Positions 7,924 to 17,371 of a stretch of 64,000 nt of DNA are shown here, one piece after another. The notes beneath the pieces are model-generated. The model made no database searches and had not been told where the DNA came from. It saw only the letters and a program-made list of their open reading frames with translations. Source of the DNA: Flavobacteriales bacterium (GTDB lineage: Bacteria > Bacteroidota > Bacteroidia > Palsa-965); the NCBI GenBank assembly GCA_040377305.1, contig JBEIPA010000013.1, forward strand, positions 64,001 to 128,000, in the 5' to 3' direction. Within the stretch, counting starts at the first letter, position 1; every line of letters begins with the position of its first letter. Made by a program: the position numbers and the translations under genes.

Positions 7924-8241
7924 GTGAAACGACAAGCACTTTTATTGCCATCCGCAAAAAATATTCTCAGCGAAATGGGAGAGAACCTTCGTCTCGCACG
8001 TCTGAGAAGAAAGATAAGCGCACAACAAGTAGCGGAACGCGCAAACATCAGCCGATCTACTTTGTGGATGATTGAAAAAGGTTCTCCGGCTGTTGCAATG
8101 GGTGCGTACATGCAGGTTTTATTTGTGCTTGGGCTGGAAAATGATCTCGGCAAAGTTGCGGCAGATGACGTGCTCGGAAAGAAGCTTCAGGATCTGGAGT
8201 TAATGCCAAAAGAGCGAGCACCTAAACGTCCGAAGGAATGA
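7924..8241 (+). CDS. XRE-family HTH regulator / HipB-like antitoxin
   Basis: LRLARLRRKISAQQVAERANISRSTL..IEKG HTH; ATGA overlap with the HipA-family gene. Confidence 0.85.
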   Translation: MKRQALLLPSAKNILSEMGENLRLARLRRKISAQQVAERANISRSTLWMIEKGSPAVAMGAYMQVLFVLGLENDLGKVAADDVLGKKLQDLELMPKERAPKRPKE

Positions 8242-9479
8242 ATCCGATTGAAGTTTGGTCGCAATGGGTGGGAATGAATGAAGCAGCACGCGTTGGGCTT
8301 ATTCATGCAGGAGAATCGCGCGGACAAGAAATACTTTCGTTTGAATACGATGCAAAGTGGATGAAGACACGTCATCACGTGCTTGATCCTTATTTGCAGT
8401 ATTATTCCGGGAAATTTTTTCCGCGCAGCGGTTCTGAAAGCTTTGGTTTGTTTCTCGATTCTTCTCCTGGAGATTGGGGACGCATGCTGCACAACAAATA
8501 CGAACAAGTGCTCGCGCGAAAAGAGAAACGCGAAGTAAGTAAGCTGCATGCATCCGGTTTTCTTGTGCGTGTATTCGATTACTATCGTCAGGGTGCATTG
8601 CGTTTCAGGTTTAACGCAAATGAAGAATTCGTAACGAGTGATGAACAATTCTTCCTGCCGACGTTTGCTTCGCTGAAAGAACTCGAACGTGCTAGTGTAA
8701 TTTGCAGCAACGAGCACGTCAATGACAAAGATTTTCCGACTGCAATAGAAGCACTTATTCATCCCGGCGGCGCGCTGGGAGGGAAGCGTCCGAAAGTAAA
8801 TGTGATTGACGACGAGTGGCAAATGTGGATGGCAAAATTCCCATCACCGCAAGATCAGTCTGACATTGGCGGTTGGGAATTTGTGGCACACACCTTGGCT
8901 GGACTCGCAGGAATAAATACGAGTTCAGTACTGCTGAAAAAATCGAACGCTCATCATCACACTTTTCTTTCGCAACGTTTCGATCGAAATCTGAAAGGAG
9001 AACGAATTCATTTTGCATCGGCCATGACTATGTTGGGTTATGCCAATGAAAATGATTCGCTGCAACGCGTAAGTTATCTCAACATGGCAGAGTTTCTCAT
9101 GCGGCATGGTTCAGATGTAAATCGCGATCTGGAAGAGTTGTGGAGAAGAATTGTGTTCAACATTGCAATCAGAAACACGGATGATCATTTACGTAATCAC
9201 GGTTTCTTGCTCAACGATCGTGGTTGGGAACTGTCACCTGCATTTGATCTGAATCCAACGGGTGGAGATTCACTTTCACTCAACATTTCGGAGAGCGACA
9301 GTTCATGCGATTTCGAACTCGCGATGCGTGTGGCGCCTTATTTCCGGATCAGCGACGCGCGTGCGAAGAGCATTATGCAGATTGTGAAAGTTGCAGTGGG
9401 GCAGTGGAGAAAAGTTGCGTCCGATGCCGGCCTTACAAAAGCCGAGATCGAACGCATGAGTAGTTCTTTTGAAAAGTAA
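8238..9479 (+). CDS. HipA-family kinase toxin
   Basis: LGG.RPK loop, RFDR, NTDDHLRNHGF and LSPAFDLNP motifs. Confidence 0.9.
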   Translation: MNPIEVWSQWVGMNEAARVGLIHAGESRGQEILSFEYDAKWMKTRHHVLDPYLQYYSGKFFPRSGSESFGLFLDSSPGDWGRMLHNKYEQVLARKEKREVSKLHASGFLVRVFDYYRQGALRFRFNANEEFVTSDEQFFLPTFASLKELERASVICSNEHVNDKDFPTAIEALIHPGGALGGKRPKVNVIDDEWQMWMAKFPSPQDQSDIGGWEFVAHTLAGLAGINTSSVLLKKSNAHHHTFLSQRFDRNLKGERIHFASAMTMLGYANENDSLQRVSYLNMAEFLMRHGSDVNRDLEELWRRIVFNIAIRNTDDHLRNHGFLLNDRGWELSPAFDLNPTGGDSLSLNISESDSSCDFELAMRVAPYFRISDARAKSIMQIVKVAVGQWRKVASDAGLTKAEIERMSSSFEK

Positions 9480-11284: not shown

Positions 11285-13204
11285 TCAGATTTCCGCACCC
11301 AGGATGAGAATGTCGTCGGGTTGCTCGAGTTTGTTGCTGTGTTCGCTGATGTACTTGTCGATTTCAGATTGAGATTTCAGGGCTGCCAGTAGATCATACA
11401 CATGACGCTGGTCGGAACCCGGGAGGGAAGTCAACCCATCGCTAAACAGGAATAGCTTATCAGACTTCTGCAGTTCCACAGAATTTCTCGTGAAGGGATT
11501 TACCGTTCCGCTCACCGAACCCGCACGTTGTTCTGCACCACGATATTCAATCACCTGATTTTTGCGCACCAGAATCACCGGCATTCCCGCAGAAGAGAAA
11601 TGCATTTCTGTTTTCTCCTTGTTGAATCTGCAAACAGCAATTTCAATGGTATCAGAAACGAGTGGAGTACTTTCCGCAATGCCGTCGTGTTGCAATGCAC
11701 CGCGCACTTTCATGTTGAGCTCATAAAGAATTTCTTCGGGTGCATGAACTTTGTTCTCAATCACAATTCCGTTGAGGAAAGAAGCTGCCATTACACTCAT
11801 GAATCCGCCAGGCACTCCATGGCCGGAGCAATCGCCAAGCGCAATGAAATAGTCGGATTCGGTTTCTGCAATCCACCAGAAGTCGCCACTAACAATTGAG
11901 CGAGGTCGATTATATAGAAATCCTTTCGGAAAAATGGCCTTCAGCTGGCTTTCGATCGGAGTAACCGCTTCCTGAATTCTTCTTGCGTAGTTAATACTAT
12001 CGGTGATGTCTTTGTTCTTCGATTCTATGATTGCTTTCTGCTGTTCGAGAACAAGTCCTGCTTTCTTCCCCATTTTAATTCGTCCGAACAAAAGAATGGC
12101 AATCACAATGAATCCAACCGATGAAACAATTCCGCCTGCAACATAAATTTTCTGTTGACGATCATCTTCTTCCGCAATGGCAAGTGCCTTCTCCGTTTTT
12201 TCTTTGTCGTAGAGCGTTTCCAGATTCTTGATGTTTTGCTGATTCTTTGTGCTGAGAATACTGTCTTTCAAAGACTGATAGCTCGTATAGTATTCAAGCG
12301 CGAGTTTATCGTTGCCGGATGCTTCATACAACTCAGCAATACGTCGTAGTTGGTTCATGCGCGAATCACGAACATTTAAACGAGTTGAAATGCTCAAAGC
12401 AGAGTCCATGGCGCTTAATGCCGCCGGATAATTTTTCTGAAATTCCCGCAGCTCAGAAAGCGAAAGCCAGAGTGCCATCATGTCATACGGATTCTCTTCG
12501 TTGCGCGCAATCACGAAAGCTGCATTCATCAGTGAATCTGATGTCTTAATATTCCCTTCCGTCGCCAGACAATATGCTGTTCCGGCCATATTTGCAGCGA
12601 TCCAGTGTTTGAGATCATATTTCTCCGCTGCAAGCAGTCCTTCATGGAAATATTCTTTGGCGAGAAGAAAACTATCTACTTCAATGTTGTGGCGACCCAG
12701 AAAATTCGCGATGGGAGCAATTCCGCTCTGGTCGTCTCCTGCGCGATAAAATGCGTAGGCCATGCGTTGGTATTTCAGGCTGAGTTCAAGACTGTCCATC
12801 GATTCGTAGACAAGTGCGAGGTTATGATAGGATCCGCCAACATCACTCGGGTCAGCGTCCGACCCGTCTTTAAGACGTATGGATTGCAGATGCGCATTGA
12901 TGGCTTCCGGATAACGACCCATATCGGCATAAATAGTTCCGGCTACGTTTTGTGCAGCGGCTTCTCCCAATACATTGCCTTGCTCGCGGGCAATGGCAAG
13001 AGCACGATTGACAATCACCAGTCCGGTGTCCAGATCGTGGTAGCTGATGTCCCACGCAAGCGCAGTCAGCGCAACTACAATCTGCGAATCGGATTCGTTC
13101 AGCGTTAACAGCAACTTTGAAAGCGAATCAATGTCCTTCTTGTCCTGTGCCTGCAAGCTTGCGACAGAAAAAATCAGAAGGAATATGTAAATCAGCTTCT
13201 TCAT
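11285..13204 (-). CDS. Periplasmic TPR + TM + degenerate SpoIIE/PP2C-type phosphatase
   Basis: Signal peptide, TPR repeats, TM helix, DSINYARRIQ, SGDFWW, DCSGHGVPG, SDG, DD. The DGMD and DQFGG motifs are altered. Confidence 0.85.
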   Translation of the reverse strand: MKKLIYIFLLIFSVASLQAQDKKDIDSLSKLLLTLNESDSQIVVALTALAWDISYHDLDTGLVIVNRALAIAREQGNVLGEAAAQNVAGTIYADMGRYPEAINAHLQSIRLKDGSDADPSDVGGSYHNLALVYESMDSLELSLKYQRMAYAFYRAGDDQSGIAPIANFLGRHNIEVDSFLLAKEYFHEGLLAAEKYDLKHWIAANMAGTAYCLATEGNIKTSDSLMNAAFVIARNEENPYDMMALWLSLSELREFQKNYPAALSAMDSALSISTRLNVRDSRMNQLRRIAELYEASGNDKLALEYYTSYQSLKDSILSTKNQQNIKNLETLYDKEKTEKALAIAEEDDRQQKIYVAGGIVSSVGFIVIAILLFGRIKMGKKAGLVLEQQKAIIESKNKDITDSINYARRIQEAVTPIESQLKAIFPKGFLYNRPRSIVSGDFWWIAETESDYFIALGDCSGHGVPGGFMSVMAASFLNGIVIENKVHAPEEILYELNMKVRGALQHDGIAESTPLVSDTIEIAVCRFNKEKTEMHFSSAGMPVILVRKNQVIEYRGAEQRAGSVSGTVNPFTRNSVELQKSDKLFLFSDGLTSLPGSDQRHVYDLLAALKSQSEIDKYISEHSNKLEQPDDILILGAEI

Positions 13205-13320
13205 ATTCTGATTCCTATTACGAGAACGTCATCGATGCCGACGAAGGCACCGCCTTGTCGGCATCGTGACTTCGAGTGAGCCAAAACAATATTCAGGACG
13301 TTCTCTTGATGTGTTCGCAT
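13201..13320 (-). CDS. Candidate 39-aa small ORF MRTHQENVLNIVLAHSKSRCRQGGAFVGIDDVLVIGIRI
   Basis: ATG lies 2 nt after the upstream stop, the frame is open, and its TGA overlaps the next gene's ATG (ATGA). Translation is not demonstrated. Confidence 0.35.
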   Translation of the reverse strand: MRTHQENVLNIVLAHSKSRCRQGGAFVGIDDVLVIGIRI

Positions 13321-13357
13321 GGTTATATTCTGATTCCTATTACGAGAACGTCATCGA
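13203..13357. repeat. 33-bp perfect direct repeat of a gene 3' end flanking a structured 89-bp insert (element copy 1)
   Basis: atattctgattcctattacgagaacgtcatcga at 13203-13235 and 13325-13357. Confidence 0.95.
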
Positions 13358-15287
13358 CCTGTTCATGCGAACCTTTCCATTCGCTGAAACGTTCATTGAG
13401 GATGCGTTGCTGTTCGTTGCAACTCTTGTCCGCAACCGTGCAGAGAATATCCCGCAGCTGTTTGTACTTCAGTTTTTTTCCTTGCGGGCCACCAAACTGA
13501 TCGGCATAACCATCGCTGAAGATGTAGATCATGTCGCCCGGTTCGCAATCGTGTTCGAGCAAAGTAAAAGGACGCACATCGCCCACGTATTCTCCAACCG
13601 GAAATTTATCGGCGCGGTATTCAATCACCTGATTTTTCCGGATTACCCAAAGTGGATTCATTGCGCAGGCAAAACGAAGTTTTTTCCTGTCGTTCGAGAA
13701 AGAGCACATCACCATATCCATTCCGTCTTTCAGGCCGGAGTTTTGGCCGCCAGAACGATTAAGAGCGGTGATCACTTTATCGCGTAGTTGGTTGAGAATT
13801 TCAGCCGGAGAAGAAACTTTTCGTTCCGTAATAATTTCGAAAAGAAACACGCTACCAAGCATGCTCATGAATCCACCAGGAACTCCGTGGCCGGTGCTAT
13901 CCGCTCCGGCGAGGAAAAATTCTCCATCCTGTTCGCTGCACCACCAGAAATCGCCGCTCACAATATCTTTCGCACGAGACAACACAAACGCATCAGTGAA
14001 GTTTCGGGTGAGCTGTTCGATCGAAGGTACTACGGCATCCTGAATGCGGCTTGCGTAGTTAATGCTGTCGGTAATGTCCTGATTTTTCTCTTCGATAAGC
14101 TGGCTTTGGCGTGCCGTTTCCTGATTCGTTTCCTTGCGGAATTTGTTTCGCTTGTAAAGCATGACTACAAGAAAAACCAGCACGATGAAAGCGATGATAA
14201 TTGCAATCAGGAACCATTGACGGGTATCAGCTTTACTGCTGAATAGCTCGAGTTGTTGTTTCTGTTTGTCGCTTTCAAACTTTGCTTCAAGATTGCGCTG
14301 GTGATTCAGGACGTCGTCGTTTACAATTGAATCGCGAAGCAGCATGTATTTTTTCAGGTAGAGGAGAGCGCTGTCGTATTGTTGCTCAGTCTGGTAAGCC
14401 GCGGCCAGATTGCTATACAGATCAACCACTTCTTCGCGAACACCAATCTGGCTGAAGATATTGAGGCACTGGTGCATGTATCTGATTGCACTTCTGTTTT
14501 GATTGCGGTACAGAAGAATTGCAATCTGGTTCGACATGATCTGTGCACGGGAGTATTCGTCATCCAGTGTGTCGATCATTTCCCATGCGCGGTTGATGCA
14601 AAAATCAGAGCTGTCTTCGTTGCTCATACGCGCATAACAAACGCCCAAAGCACTCCATGACATCGCCTCCACAATGCTCTCTCCCATTTTTGCTGCAAGC
14701 TGTTGAGATTTTGAGAAAGTAATTTTCGCTTCATCGAAATAGCCGGTGCGCATATACAAGGAGCCGAGGTTGACGTATGCAACGGAAAGTCCCCGTTCAT
14801 AGCCCGCTTGTTCGTAAATGTCAACAGCACGCTGCAAGGTGGAGCTCGTCATTGCCGTATCGCCCATCGATGAATACACGAGCGACATATTCATGTATGC
14901 TGTACCCGTACGACGAGGATCACCAAATTTCTCTGCTTCTTCCAGGCCCTCAATGTGTGCAGCGAGCGCTTCGTCGAACTCACCCATGTCGTTGTAGGTG
15001 GCGCCGAGAGTATTGAGACACATTATTTTTCCCAATGGGTAATTAATTTTCTTTGCAACCTTCAGTCCCTCTTGCGCATATTCAATACCCAGGGTGAGAT
15101 TGTAGTATGCGGTGTCCCACGCAACGCGATTGAAGTAGAGCACTTTTAAGGTGTCATCGGGAAGTGCTTGCAGATCGGCAACTGAACGTTTAGACGGAGC
15201 ATCCACTTTTGGCATTTGTGCACGCACTGGTATTGTTGCAAATAGCAGCAGCGAAAGCAGAATAGAAGCGCGGATGACCTGTGGCAT
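13323..15287 (-). CDS. Periplasmic TPR + TM + SpoIIE/PP2C-type phosphatase
   Basis: Signal peptide, TPRs, TM (WFLIAIIIAFIVLVFLVVML), SGDFWW, DSTGHGVPG, DGMD, SDGYADQFGG, EQVDDVLV. Confidence 0.9.
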   Translation of the reverse strand: MPQVIRASILLSLLLFATIPVRAQMPKVDAPSKRSVADLQALPDDTLKVLYFNRVAWDTAYYNLTLGIEYAQEGLKVAKKINYPLGKIMCLNTLGATYNDMGEFDEALAAHIEGLEEAEKFGDPRRTGTAYMNMSLVYSSMGDTAMTSSTLQRAVDIYEQAGYERGLSVAYVNLGSLYMRTGYFDEAKITFSKSQQLAAKMGESIVEAMSWSALGVCYARMSNEDSSDFCINRAWEMIDTLDDEYSRAQIMSNQIAILLYRNQNRSAIRYMHQCLNIFSQIGVREEVVDLYSNLAAAYQTEQQYDSALLYLKKYMLLRDSIVNDDVLNHQRNLEAKFESDKQKQQLELFSSKADTRQWFLIAIIIAFIVLVFLVVMLYKRNKFRKETNQETARQSQLIEEKNQDITDSINYASRIQDAVVPSIEQLTRNFTDAFVLSRAKDIVSGDFWWCSEQDGEFFLAGADSTGHGVPGGFMSMLGSVFLFEIITERKVSSPAEILNQLRDKVITALNRSGGQNSGLKDGMDMVMCSFSNDRKKLRFACAMNPLWVIRKNQVIEYRADKFPVGEYVGDVRPFTLLEHDCEPGDMIYIFSDGYADQFGGPQGKKLKYKQLRDILCTVADKSCNEQQRILNERFSEWKGSHEQVDDVLVIGIRI

Positions 15288-15292
15288 TCTGT

Positions 15293-15300
15293 CAAATGTA
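15293..15300 (-). promoter_or_regulatory. Possible internal -7 promoter box (near-leaderless) for the 13323-15287 gene
   Basis: TACATTTG lies 5 nt upstream of the ATG; no clear -33 box. Confidence 0.35.
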
Positions 15301-15316
15301 CAATTAAGTGTAGCGG

Positions 15317-15462
15317 AATCCCATTACGAGAACGTCATCCATGCTGACGAAGGACAAGCCTTGTCGGCATGGTGACTTCGAGTGAGCAAAATAAGTGTAC
15401 TGGACGCTCTCGTTCAAAGGTTCATTTTTAAAATCTAAATCCCATAACGAGAACGTCATCCA
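15317..15462. repeat. 25-bp direct repeat (1 mismatch) of a gene 3' end flanking a structured insert (element copy 2)
   Basis: aatcccat(t/a)acgagaacgtcatcca at 15317-15341 and 15438-15462; the insert core is 41/47 identical to copy 1. Confidence 0.95.
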
Positions 15463-17371
15463 CCTGCTCAAGATCCCCTCTCCATGCGTCAAATTCTTTG
15501 ACCAACCCGGCTTCCTGATTCATCATCGGTTCTTGCGCGTTCTGAAGCATGAATTCCCGCAGGCGTTTCTGCTTGTATTTTTTTCCTTTGTGGCCACCAA
15601 ACTGATCAGCGAATCCATCTGTGCTGAGATAAACACTGTCTCCTTTCTGCAGCGTAATTTCAAATTCGGTGAAAGGATCGGGTTGTGTGGTATGGCTCAA
15701 TCCTACCGGAAATTTATCCGGTCCGTGAATTTGCAGGGTGCCGTCGCGTATGTGTACAAGTGCATTATTCGCACAGGCAAAACGAAGACGACCGGAGTTG
15801 TTCAATGCGCACAACACAACATCCATTCCGTCTCGCGCCTCCTCGTTGCCTTCACGATTAAGCGAACTGATTACGTTGTGACGAACTTCATTGAGTAATT
15901 GAGCCGGACTTGTGTTCTCATGTTCTGCAAGTGCACGGTTGAGCAAGTTGATGTTGAGCAATGACATGAAAGCCCCAGGAACTCCGTGTCCAGTGCAATC
16001 AGCGACTGCGAAATAGAATTCATCCTCATGTTCTGCGCACCACCAGAAATCGCCGGAGACAATATCCTTCGGCTTGTACAGAATAAAATTCTCCGGAAGA
16101 TGCGTGTTCACCATCGTGCGTGAACCCAACAATGCCGTCTGAATTCTTCGCGCGTAGTTGATACTATCGAGGATACTTCTGTTCTGATCTTCGATTGCAT
16201 CGTATGCCTGTTTCAGTTCCACGTTTTTCAGTCGGTGAATTTCCGCTTGCTGATCGGCTTGGGCGGTAGCATGTTTCTGCTGCATTGATTTGATGCGAGT
16301 CGTCACTTCTTCACCAGTGATTTCCGCTTTGATTCGGTAACCGGTTTCGAGGTGGTCGAGGGCATTCTTGAAATCTGCTTTCGCTTTGTACAGTTCTGAC
16401 AGCAATGTGTGACACACGATTATTTTCTGCTTCAAACCGCCTTCAGCGCTGATCATTAATGCATCCTGAAGCAATTGCTCGGCCGGTCCAAAATCCGTTT
16501 GGGCGATATGAATTCTGGCGAGTTCAATTTCAGATGTAATAATCCCCGGCCAGTACTTTAGATTTTTACGGATGTTCAGCGCTTCTTCCAGGGAAAGTTT
16601 GGCTTTGGTGTTGTCTCCGCGTTTGGAGTAGATTACACCAAGATCATTTAGGACACGACTGATCGCAGTCTGGTGCCCGGTGCTCCGATATCCGGTGAGC
16701 GCTTCTTCATTTAATGCAATGGCCTCGTCGAATTCGTTACGCGCAATGTGAATGGATGCTATTCCGGAATTGATGCGTGCCAGTTGGTAATTGAGCATAT
16801 GTTTTGTCGCCACTTCCTTCGCGTGCAAAAAATAGTTCATTGCATTATCGAACTCCTGCATGTCGGAATGAAAAACACCCAACTGAAAATCAGACCACCC
16901 TATACTTTCGGGATCAAATTTCTCTGAAAGCTTGCGGGCTTCATACGCCAGTGCAAATGCTTTTTCACGCTCACCGTTCGACCAGCAGTTGAAAGCAAAC
17001 ATCTGCTTTGCAATAGCCGCTGCGAAAGATCCTGGTGCGAGACTCAGCAGTTGTTCTGCATGTTCAAACTCGGCAATTGCATCTTTCTGCCTGTTCTGCT
17101 GACGGTAATAAAAGGCAATGTAGAGTCGTGCGAAAGCTTCCAGTGTGGGATCATTTTCCCGTTGTCCCTGCGCGGCTAATTCAGAACTGAGTTTGTAGCA
17201 TTCTTCAAAAAGATAATCCGATGCGCTGGTAAGGAAGATAATCTTTATCGCCAGTTTATCTTCTTCCCCGGGGATTTCATCCAGACGATTGTTCAGCCAC
17301 TCTATAGAGAAGTACATCGGTTTGTTTAACCGTACTGCATTTCCCAATGCGCTCTGAACGCGATCGGCCAT
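15428..17371 (-). CDS. Cytoplasmic TPR + SpoIIE/PP2C-type phosphatase
   Basis: No signal peptide or TM; TPRs, SGDFWW, DCTGHGVPG, DGMD, TDGFADQFGG, EQVDDVLV. Its ATG overlaps the kbl stop (TAATG). Confidence 0.9.
   Translation of the reverse strand: MADRVQSALGNAVRLNKPMYFSIEWLNNRLDEIPGEEDKLAIKIIFLTSASDYLFEECYKLSSELAAQGQRENDPTLEAFARLYIAFYYRQQNRQKDAIAEFEHAEQLLSLAPGSFAAAIAKQMFAFNCWSNGEREKAFALAYEARKLSEKFDPESIGWSDFQLGVFHSDMQEFDNAMNYFLHAKEVATKHMLNYQLARINSGIASIHIARNEFDEAIALNEEALTGYRSTGHQTAISRVLNDLGVIYSKRGDNTKAKLSLEEALNIRKNLKYWPGIITSEIELARIHIAQTDFGPAEQLLQDALMISAEGGLKQKIIVCHTLLSELYKAKADFKNALDHLETGYRIKAEITGEEVTTRIKSMQQKHATAQADQQAEIHRLKNVELKQAYDAIEDQNRSILDSINYARRIQTALLGSRTMVNTHLPENFILYKPKDIVSGDFWWCAEHEDEFYFAVADCTGHGVPGAFMSLLNINLLNRALAEHENTSPAQLLNEVRHNVISSLNREGNEEARDGMDVVLCALNNSGRLRFACANNALVHIRDGTLQIHGPDKFPVGLSHTTQPDPFTEFEITLQKGDSVYLSTDGFADQFGGHKGKKYKQKRLREFMLQNAQEPMMNQEAGLVKEFDAWRGDLEQVDDVLVMGFRF

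Follow-up and report, generated by a model that had tools for sequence, protein, structure and literature searches.

A gene-less hairpin element behind six SpoIIE phosphatase genes of a Flavobacteriales genome may have spread together with its own copy of the gene end

Introduction

How does a gene come to be followed, a short distance behind its stop codon, by a second copy of its own last codons? The question is raised by a 64,000-nt stretch of the Flavobacteriales bacterium assembly GCA_040377305.1 (contig JBEIPA010000013.1, positions 64,001 to 128,000; hereafter the window), in which genes for TPR-SpoIIE phosphatases are followed by a short insert and then by a repeat of the gene end. An initial annotation, made from the sequence alone, described two intact TPR-SpoIIE genes, each with such a cassette, and proposed a miniature mobile element that re-copies the end of its host gene, or an excision switch. 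The window in fact holds three such genes in tandem, with the insert behind two of them, both on the reverse strand: the host of copy 1 (654 aa; 13323..15287; reading frames, domain and structure search) and the host of copy 2 (647 aa; 15428..17371; open reading frames and domain search). We conclude, with moderate confidence, that the insert is a gene-less hairpin element of 86–87 nt, resembling a repetitive extragenic palindrome (REP), which occupies six SpoIIE paralogues and has spread by one-sided recombination, carrying its own version of the gene end.

Results

Both repeats reported by the initial annotation were recovered: at copy 1, 33 nt recur perfectly with a period of 122 from position 13203, and at copy 2, 25 nt recur with one mismatch and a period of 121 from position 15317. 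The insert cores are alike, the best ungapped 47-nt core being 41/47 identical (13235–13281 versus offset +2106) between host genes that are 47% identical in the domain, whereas at its left end the insert shows no conservation. When the genome (G000) was searched by BLAST and with a profile, and each of its 51 SpoIIE domain ends was inspected, six copies emerged on five contigs, namely copies 1 and 2 in the window and four elsewhere, referred to as C26, C10, C7 and C21. Each lies after a SpoIIE stop codon and before a second tail (6 of the 51 domains), and the association with gene-end duplications thereby extends to all four loci beyond the window. C10 lacks S1, one of two antisense segments described below, the hairpin is deleted from C7, and C21 is degenerate and also lacks S1. 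The hairpin, present in five of the six copies, has no free copy in the genome; these low numbers, all at SpoIIE ends, differ from the high genomic copy number of a REP. The element is thus neither a common REP unconnected with flanking duplications nor confined to two junctions, two outcomes that would have spoken against the original proposal. Tandem gene duplication was rejected given the five contigs, cores far more alike than the genes, and the empty orthologues described below. A seventh SpoIIE end, on C50, also has a duplicate, but the insert is a different one, made of heptamer repeats, and the comparisons that follow place this end with the 45 others; at this locus (C50:1862, forward strand) the tail is repeated at least three times around the insert, which is unrelated to the element. 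At C22:55342 a short palindrome lies inside one coding repeat of a multi-repeat SpoIIE-type gene.

An assembly artefact was excluded, since contigs of independent runs carry the copies unaltered: a contig of run X3 spans 15119–15546, including copy 2, with 0 mismatches and 3 gaps, and one of run X2 reads across the C10 copy, likewise with 0 mismatches. Copy 2 lies within a single contig of run X1, possibly the source run, in which the copy 1 insert forms a separate unitig. The depth of this unitig was 9.7, versus about 16 in the flanks (simulated P 0.02–0.03), a difference that hairpin bias or noise could produce. No skip joint, in which the unit is missing, was found at copy 2 or C10 in the assembled contigs, which drop rare variants; the suggestion of an excision switch thus gained no positive support.

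To establish which of the two tails is the older, we compared the occupied junctions with orthologous ones. Junctions without the element, for which the initial annotation had suggested a search, do exist. The copy 1 junction is empty in genomes G015 and G007, with an ATGA overlap between the two genes, which bears out the proposed entry into a formerly coupled junction; consistently, deletion of one 122-nt unit from copy 1 restores the ATGA overlap with the gene at 11285–13204. The copy 2 junction is also empty in G015 and G007, the C10 junction is empty in G015 (domain 94% identical), and orthologues of C21, C7 and C26 without the element were found, those of C21 and C7 with empty junctions. 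In G013 (locus L065, G013:C386), the C10 orthologue is followed by an opposite-strand, octamer-armed GxxExxY gene (TIGR04256), without tail duplication.

The downstream tail was closer to the orthologue in 7 of 10 comparisons and tied in 2; in the remaining one the working tail, i.e. the first one, which ends the gene, was nearer by a single base. For copy 1 and C10, moreover, the downstream DNA of the orthologue continues from the second tail. Among the six genes the working tails are alike, with a mean identity of 24.9/32 versus 18.4/32 in the other 45 (0 of 20000 permutations as high). They share GAC-GTT (6/6 versus 3/45), AGA at the Arg codon (6/6 versus 7/45) and, in five of six, an AGA-ATH-TAR end (3/45 elsewhere), whereas the five second tails that could be scored average 18.5/30 versus 22.7/30 for the matching working tails. 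Between the tails of a locus we counted 37 differing sites, 26 of them at third positions (P 5e-6), and the codons differ synonymously in 20 cases and non-synonymously in 8. Five of the six pairs differ, unlike the identical direct repeats with terminal inverted repeats that mark a miniature inverted-repeat transposable element or insertion sequence (IS). In a mosaic profile along the genes, which did not include copy 2, C10 alone falls mildly toward the 3′ end (from 26–29 to 21–24 of 30). Because the working tails are alike, the differences concentrate at third positions and the downstream tails match the orthologues, the working tail appears to travel with the element and the original to be pushed downstream. 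Judged by these sequences, it is the original end that has been displaced downstream, and the working tail in front of it is associated with the element; the duplication reported by the initial annotation is real, but it is not a plain re-copying of the host gene end.

The unit has a constant order: working tail, stop, S1, linker, S2, hairpin and displaced tail. Inserts measure 50–87 nt across the family and encode nothing. All parts of copies 1 and 2 lie on the reverse strand. In copy 1, the working tail (V-D-D...I-R-I-TAA; 13323..13357), delimited by repeat comparison, is followed by S1 (13297..13305), a 9-nt exact antisense of the tail, by S2 (13264..13278), an extension of the hairpin arm predicted to pair with the displaced tail and whose final GA matches the GTC codon of the host, by a terminal 28-nt hairpin with one bulged C (13236..13263; fold and alignment), and by the displaced original tail (13201..13235), whose TGA overlaps the next ATG as in the empty orthologues. 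In copy 2, the element-associated working tail (V-D-D...F-R-F-stop; 15428..15462) differs from the empty orthologues at 10/33 nt. It is followed by S1 (15403..15414), antisense to that tail over 12 pairs, one of them G-U, and by the 5′ arm extension S2 (15370..15384), with a predicted bulged pairing to the displaced tail and a final CA that matches the host GTG codon. The terminal 28-nt hairpin, again with one bulged C (15342..15369), abuts by its 3′ A the displaced original tail (15304..15341), which matches the empty G015 and G007 orthologues at 28/33 positions, versus 23/33 for the working tail. The visible right joint falls after the first base of the V/I codon that precedes D-D, 8 nt upstream of GTT, G-TT being the crossover sequence of integron cassettes (attC). 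In PP2C/SpoIIE phosphatases the D-D strand contributes a metal-binding aspartate.

The reported order of stop, 2 nt and ATG is present at copies 1 and 2, but the ATG is absent from C7, C26, C10 and C21 and thus is not a conserved part of the element. At copy 1 it opens a 39-codon frame that runs to the TGA overlapping the start of the next gene, and at copy 2 a frame of just three codons; a conserved mini-ORF (open reading frame) in the insert was ruled out, since ATG and frame vary among copies.

The unit is predicted to fold into two stem-loops, one formed by the working tail and S1 around a 37–38-nt loop that holds the stop codon, the other by S2, the 28-nt hairpin and the displaced tail. 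Both strands of the inserts fold better than shuffled sequences (z −1.8 to −3.9). In the long stem, compared across four copies, 93% of positions pair; the three bulges are the same in all intact copies, and 3 pairs are changed on both sides; 2 of 500 shuffles scored as high, although four related sequences can beat shuffles without structure and the structure was derived from these same sequences. One of the two-sided changes involves the host's own codon (GTC versus GTG), and S1 tracks the host's Leu or Cys codon, indicating that the two antisense segments co-vary with the host tail. In C26, S1 is predicted to pair on either side of the entry point. An exact antisense copy of at least 9 nt within 120 nt of the stop was found for 9 of 98 tails, of which 35 come from the 51 SpoIIE ends of this genome and the rest from fetched loci, versus 20 of 1500 mismatched control pairs; 8 of these 9 tails are double. 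An Rfam search of the window assigned no family to the element, its single match (E 0.97) lying elsewhere in the stretch.

Outside this genome the element itself is rare. Scans with a core pattern yielded 0 matches in viral contigs, 7 in metagenome contigs, all in unrelated contexts; in genome contigs a first scan gave 0 and a second 4, three of these in unrelated contexts and one an orphan hairpin of G015. A covariance model built from four copies found, in 34 genomes of the order and outside this genome, the same G015 hairpin (G015:C206; E 6e-4) and a perfect hairpin in G044 (E 0.001), which we judged unrelated; in 149 genomes of the class it found none, only part of the candidates having been scored. 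The orphan hairpin (L225) stands behind a secreted-protein gene and is preceded by a few bases resembling E-Q-V codons. Among 40 SpoIIE downstream regions of G015, G007 and G013, the 36 that could be parsed held neither a second tail nor cargo between tails, and no cargo-bearing version of the element was found.

Double tails with other hairpins, by contrast, recur in Bacteroidia. The double-tail pattern prescribed no more of the second copy than its final seven codons and left its start free. In the order, 4 of 35 genomes matched, among them the present one and G012, an unpublished genome whose match is a plain tandem tail repeat and is kept outside all junction tallies. In the class it matched 8 of 401 genomes (7 of 400 besides this one) in 6 genera, and a reversed control gave no match. 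At 14 of the 19 outside loci parsed, the first Asp codon is preceded by no more than 4 nt of the second tail; a further locus, G289_c, which was left out of this count, has the standard joint. The inserts at the outside loci terminate in different hairpins, the 3′ arm of which continues into the tail; spacers are 20–70 nt long and unconserved. The 14 hairpin-tail junctions analysed in 4 of 400 genomes enclose no gene, and no enzyme gene was found beside them. Some of these hairpins are abundant free repeats (21–45 per genome) whose natural 3′ flanks share 3–4 nt with RTN-GAY. The last bases of our element, TCGG(C/G)A, are common to this family, G227, G289, G199 and G295, and the inserts of G295, G055 and G003 hold antisense copies of their own tail. 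Two paralogues of G227 have working tails identical over the last 60 nt. Arrays in which such a hairpin duplicates the ends of tRNA-Leu occur in G295, where it also sits inverted behind SpoIIE genes; tandem arrays of hairpin units with a period of 103–122 lie behind tRNA-Leu, SpoIIE and prs-like genes of this genome (L222, L223, L123, L122).

We then surveyed enzymes that could act on the element. The genome, 99.99% complete, holds 8 GIY-YIG and 10 Y1_Tnp matches, and no match to RVT_1 (reverse transcriptase) or PF01548 (DEDD recombinase of IS110/IS1111). A diversity-generating retroelement was rejected, given the absence of RVT_1 and the fact that just 2 of 6 differences at copy 2 fall on an A of the downstream copy; an IS110 bridge-RNA element was rejected for want of a PF01548 match. 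Ssn nucleases, which are small GIY-YIG enzymes, cleave single-stranded DNA next to REP hairpins and have transforming DNA among their substrates (PMC11893778).

Duplicated gene ends around an insert proved not to be peculiar to the element or to SpoIIE genes, as other repeat families do likewise at other genes and at tRNAs. When 4130 long ORFs were screened, 45 emerged as candidates for an end duplication, many of them adjacent paralogues; in 17 hand-picked non-SpoIIE cases the inserts are other repeat families or cargo genes, and 52 of 86 differences fall at third positions. At C52:173277 (reverse strand), a Y1_Tnp gene and palindromic repeats lie between two synonymously differing copies of a gene end, presumably that of methylmalonyl-CoA mutase. 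At C49:161904, C21:117 and C24:46752, small GIY-YIG genes immediately follow tRNA genes whose 3′ ends are duplicated, and at C21:117 a hairpin occupies the T-loop of the second tRNA copy. One octamer-repeat element ending in a short hairpin lies at the duplicated ends of four different genes (C1:9223, C30:16047, C44:20061 and C50:43929), and cargo named by inspection as hydrolase-like, thioredoxin-like and hypothetical is enclosed by gene-end duplications at C49:168188, C49:31492 and C15:25108.

The third TPR-SpoIIE gene of the window (11285..13204, reverse strand; reading frames and domain search) lies 3′ of copy 1 and has no insert behind it. The solved structure nearest to the TPR-SpoIIE protein encoded at 13323–15287 is 6k4e, a putative serine phosphatase. 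Elsewhere in the window (7924–9479, forward strand), a helix-turn-helix protein gene followed by a HipA_C protein gene forms a HipBA-like toxin-antitoxin pair beside the rplM-rpsI-rpsB-tsf cluster.

Discussion

Six copies, empty orthologous junctions, unlike tails, co-varying arms and joints at the same codon in other genomes together point to spread by one-sided recombination. From the anatomy of the unit, its joint and the direction of the event we infer a donor, a guide and an enzyme as follows. A single-stranded donor, either transforming DNA or a replication intermediate, would be anchored by homology in the gene body and the working tail, and the hairpin would set its other end. The S2 arm, being complementary to the V-D-D-V codons of the recipient, could hold the donor end on the recipient strand, where it would be joined. 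Replication would then fix the insertion, leaving the catalytic strand of the gene intact and the old tail pushed downstream. The likely maker of the donor end would be a hairpin-recognising single-strand enzyme supplied in trans, such as an Ssn-type GIY-YIG nuclease or a Y1/HUH transposase. The six loci and the empty orthologues thus sustain the earlier idea of a small non-autonomous element with a fixed V/I-D-D entry point, though not that of simple re-copying.

Several observations weigh against this account. Copy 1 shows no difference between its two tails in 33 nt, copy 2 and C10 show none in about 25 nt, and M-G-F-R-F, which is specific to the host, is retained in the working tail of copy 2. 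A generic donor tail would not predict this, so that later conversion or a donor from the orthologous locus must be assumed. The displaced tails of copy 1, copy 2 and C10 carry GAC-GTT, which is absent from their orthologues, suggesting that the true right crossover may sit a few codons further on. At 5 of the 19 outside loci the second tail starts further downstream. G015 has one copy of the hairpin that is not accompanied by a SpoIIE gene (L225), and at another of its loci (L187, G015:C262) a SpoIIE tail has a perfect 12-nt antisense copy 5 nt past its stop, without hairpin or second tail. The hairpin flanks none of the genes inspected (5 small GIY-YIG, 10 Y1_Tnp and 8 GxxExxY); other repeats were seen beside all 5 GIY-YIG, 9 of the 10 Y1_Tnp and all 8 GxxExxY genes. 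In REP/Ssn and REP/RAYT systems, by comparison, copies of the repeat stand on either side of the cognate enzyme gene. The steps of the mechanism are all proposals.

Four other explanations were considered. The 121–122-nt unit might excise as a single-stranded circle, closed at the stem of S2, hairpin and tail, pair through S1 across a new target, and be integrated by a Y1/HUH enzyme or tyrosine recombinase in trans, much as an attP carrying a gene end. The predicted folding of the unit into two stem-loops, the pairing of S1 on both sides of the entry point at C26 and the shared TCGG(C/G)A would suit such a guided circle, and the low depth of the copy 1 unitig is a weak hint in the same direction, although it may be hairpin bias or noise. 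We nevertheless regard the circle as unlikely, considering that contigs at copy 2 and C10 show no skip joint, that C10 and C21 do without S1, that spacers elsewhere are variable in length and sequence, and that no enzyme gene was found in or beside the 14 hairpin-tail junctions. It is also doubtful that the insert is a passive scar, i.e. an ordinary REP behind a SpoIIE gene that was carried in without dedicated enzyme or function by homology-facilitated illegitimate recombination, a process that offers a parallel, with a V-D-D joint set by chance shared bases and arms produced later by quasipalindrome mutation. Template switching reportedly perfects imperfect inverted repeats, and the V-D-D-V codons are themselves quasi-palindromic. 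Unrelated, abundant hairpins give the same layout with 3–4 nt of flanking identity to RTN-GAY, and the 17 non-SpoIIE duplications of this genome have varied inserts and cargo, as a scar would predict. However, the hairpin has no free copies in the genome and thus would spread only with SpoIIE tails, the cores are much more alike than the genes around them, and the three bulges persist uncorrected in every intact copy.

The identity of the tails in copy 2 and C10 stops two bases past the Gly codon (25–26 nt), as would be expected if a staggered cut had duplicated about 25 nt of target and the element had supplied the last two codons and stop, AGA-ATH-TAR, with later exchange of alleles between strains; the prevalence of that ending among the working tails agrees with this. 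Such a cut is improbable, however, since the tails of C26, C21 and C7 differ throughout, mostly synonymously, the working tails are alike in their D-D-V codons too, and no reverse transcriptase was found in the genome (Cas1 was not searched for). We find it harder still to credit a regulatory device of the host, whether an RNA switch, with S1 released by ribosomes that reach the gene end and the following gene expressed differently as a result, or a switch by DNA excision that restores translational coupling. Alternative pairings are predicted to be possible, and the 39-codon frame of copy 1 reaches the next start, but neither ATG nor frame is conserved, the downstream context varies and is convergent at C26, no terminator-like site was found in the inserts, and relatives have no insert at the same junctions.

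We tentatively entertain one further, less probable reading, a self-splinting mini-element guided by base pairing, whose arm would read the codons of the catalytic motif and hold its own 3′ end at the cut, to be joined by a single-strand enzyme of the host or in trans; several hairpin families of Bacteroidia would have converged on the same codon. If so, a unit of about 120 nt would be able to colonise a 50-member gene family without breaking any gene, and an arm that guides the joint would make it a very small programmable insertion system. If the arm does not guide, the element would still provide a route for gene-end exchange among paralogues and for the uncoupling of junctions. Its single target codon, the presence of six occupied sites beside several empty ones, the known direction of the event, arms that follow the sequence of the host and the small number of candidate enzymes make it a useful test case.

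Among known systems, non-autonomous IS200/IS605 elements and REPIN/RAYT also have a bulged hairpin end and an adjoining segment able to pair with the target, and Y1_Tnp genes are available here in trans; unlike IS200/IS605 elements, the SpoIIE unit has a single conserved hairpin end and duplicates 25–35 nt of gene end, a duplication foreign to IS200/IS605 insertion. In fungal mitochondrial genes, homing endonuclease insertions that replace the gene tail have the order recoded end, insert and displaced end, a parallel that our literature search did not confirm; unlike these, the SpoIIE insert holds no endonuclease. That search, which covered few of the subscription journals, found no description of an arrangement such as ours. 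Like the REPs of the GTAG and CGTC super-families (PMC3733652), the element is a short extragenic hairpin just 3′ of a stop codon, lying 59–60 nt behind it and within the REP range of 20–40 bp. It differs from them in its low copy number, its restriction to one gene family, its flanks of duplicated gene ends and the pairing of its arm with coding sequence. REPs of these super-families carry an unpaired GTAG or CGTC tag at one end; in the element, GTCA stands 5′ of the hairpin and is predicted to pair with the tail. The words “duplication” and “target site” are absent from the main text of PMC3733652, for which the origin and spread of CGTC repeats without a transposase of their own is an open question. 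In the NTS/Ssn system, small GIY-YIG nucleases cut such hairpins and affect transformation (PMC11893778), whereas the SpoIIE hairpin flanks none of the nuclease genes inspected. Prophage e14, a 15-kb element that can be induced to excise, provides a replacement 3′ end for the icd gene of E. coli and leaves a displaced icdC fragment (PMC13626634). As in e14, a working replacement end lies upstream and a displaced, synonymously differing C-terminal fragment downstream; unlike e14, the SpoIIE unit of 121–122 nt contains neither an integrase nor any other coding sequence, its inserts being 50–87 nt long, and occupies six paralogues. To judge by its structure, the element would work like one of the e14 type shrunk to a REP-like hairpin, yet it belongs to neither class, because it has no integrase, a low copy number and no cognate enzyme gene linked to the hairpin among the genes inspected. 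The displaced-tail layout itself is not new; what is new here is the targeting of a paralogue family by an element whose arms pair with the target.

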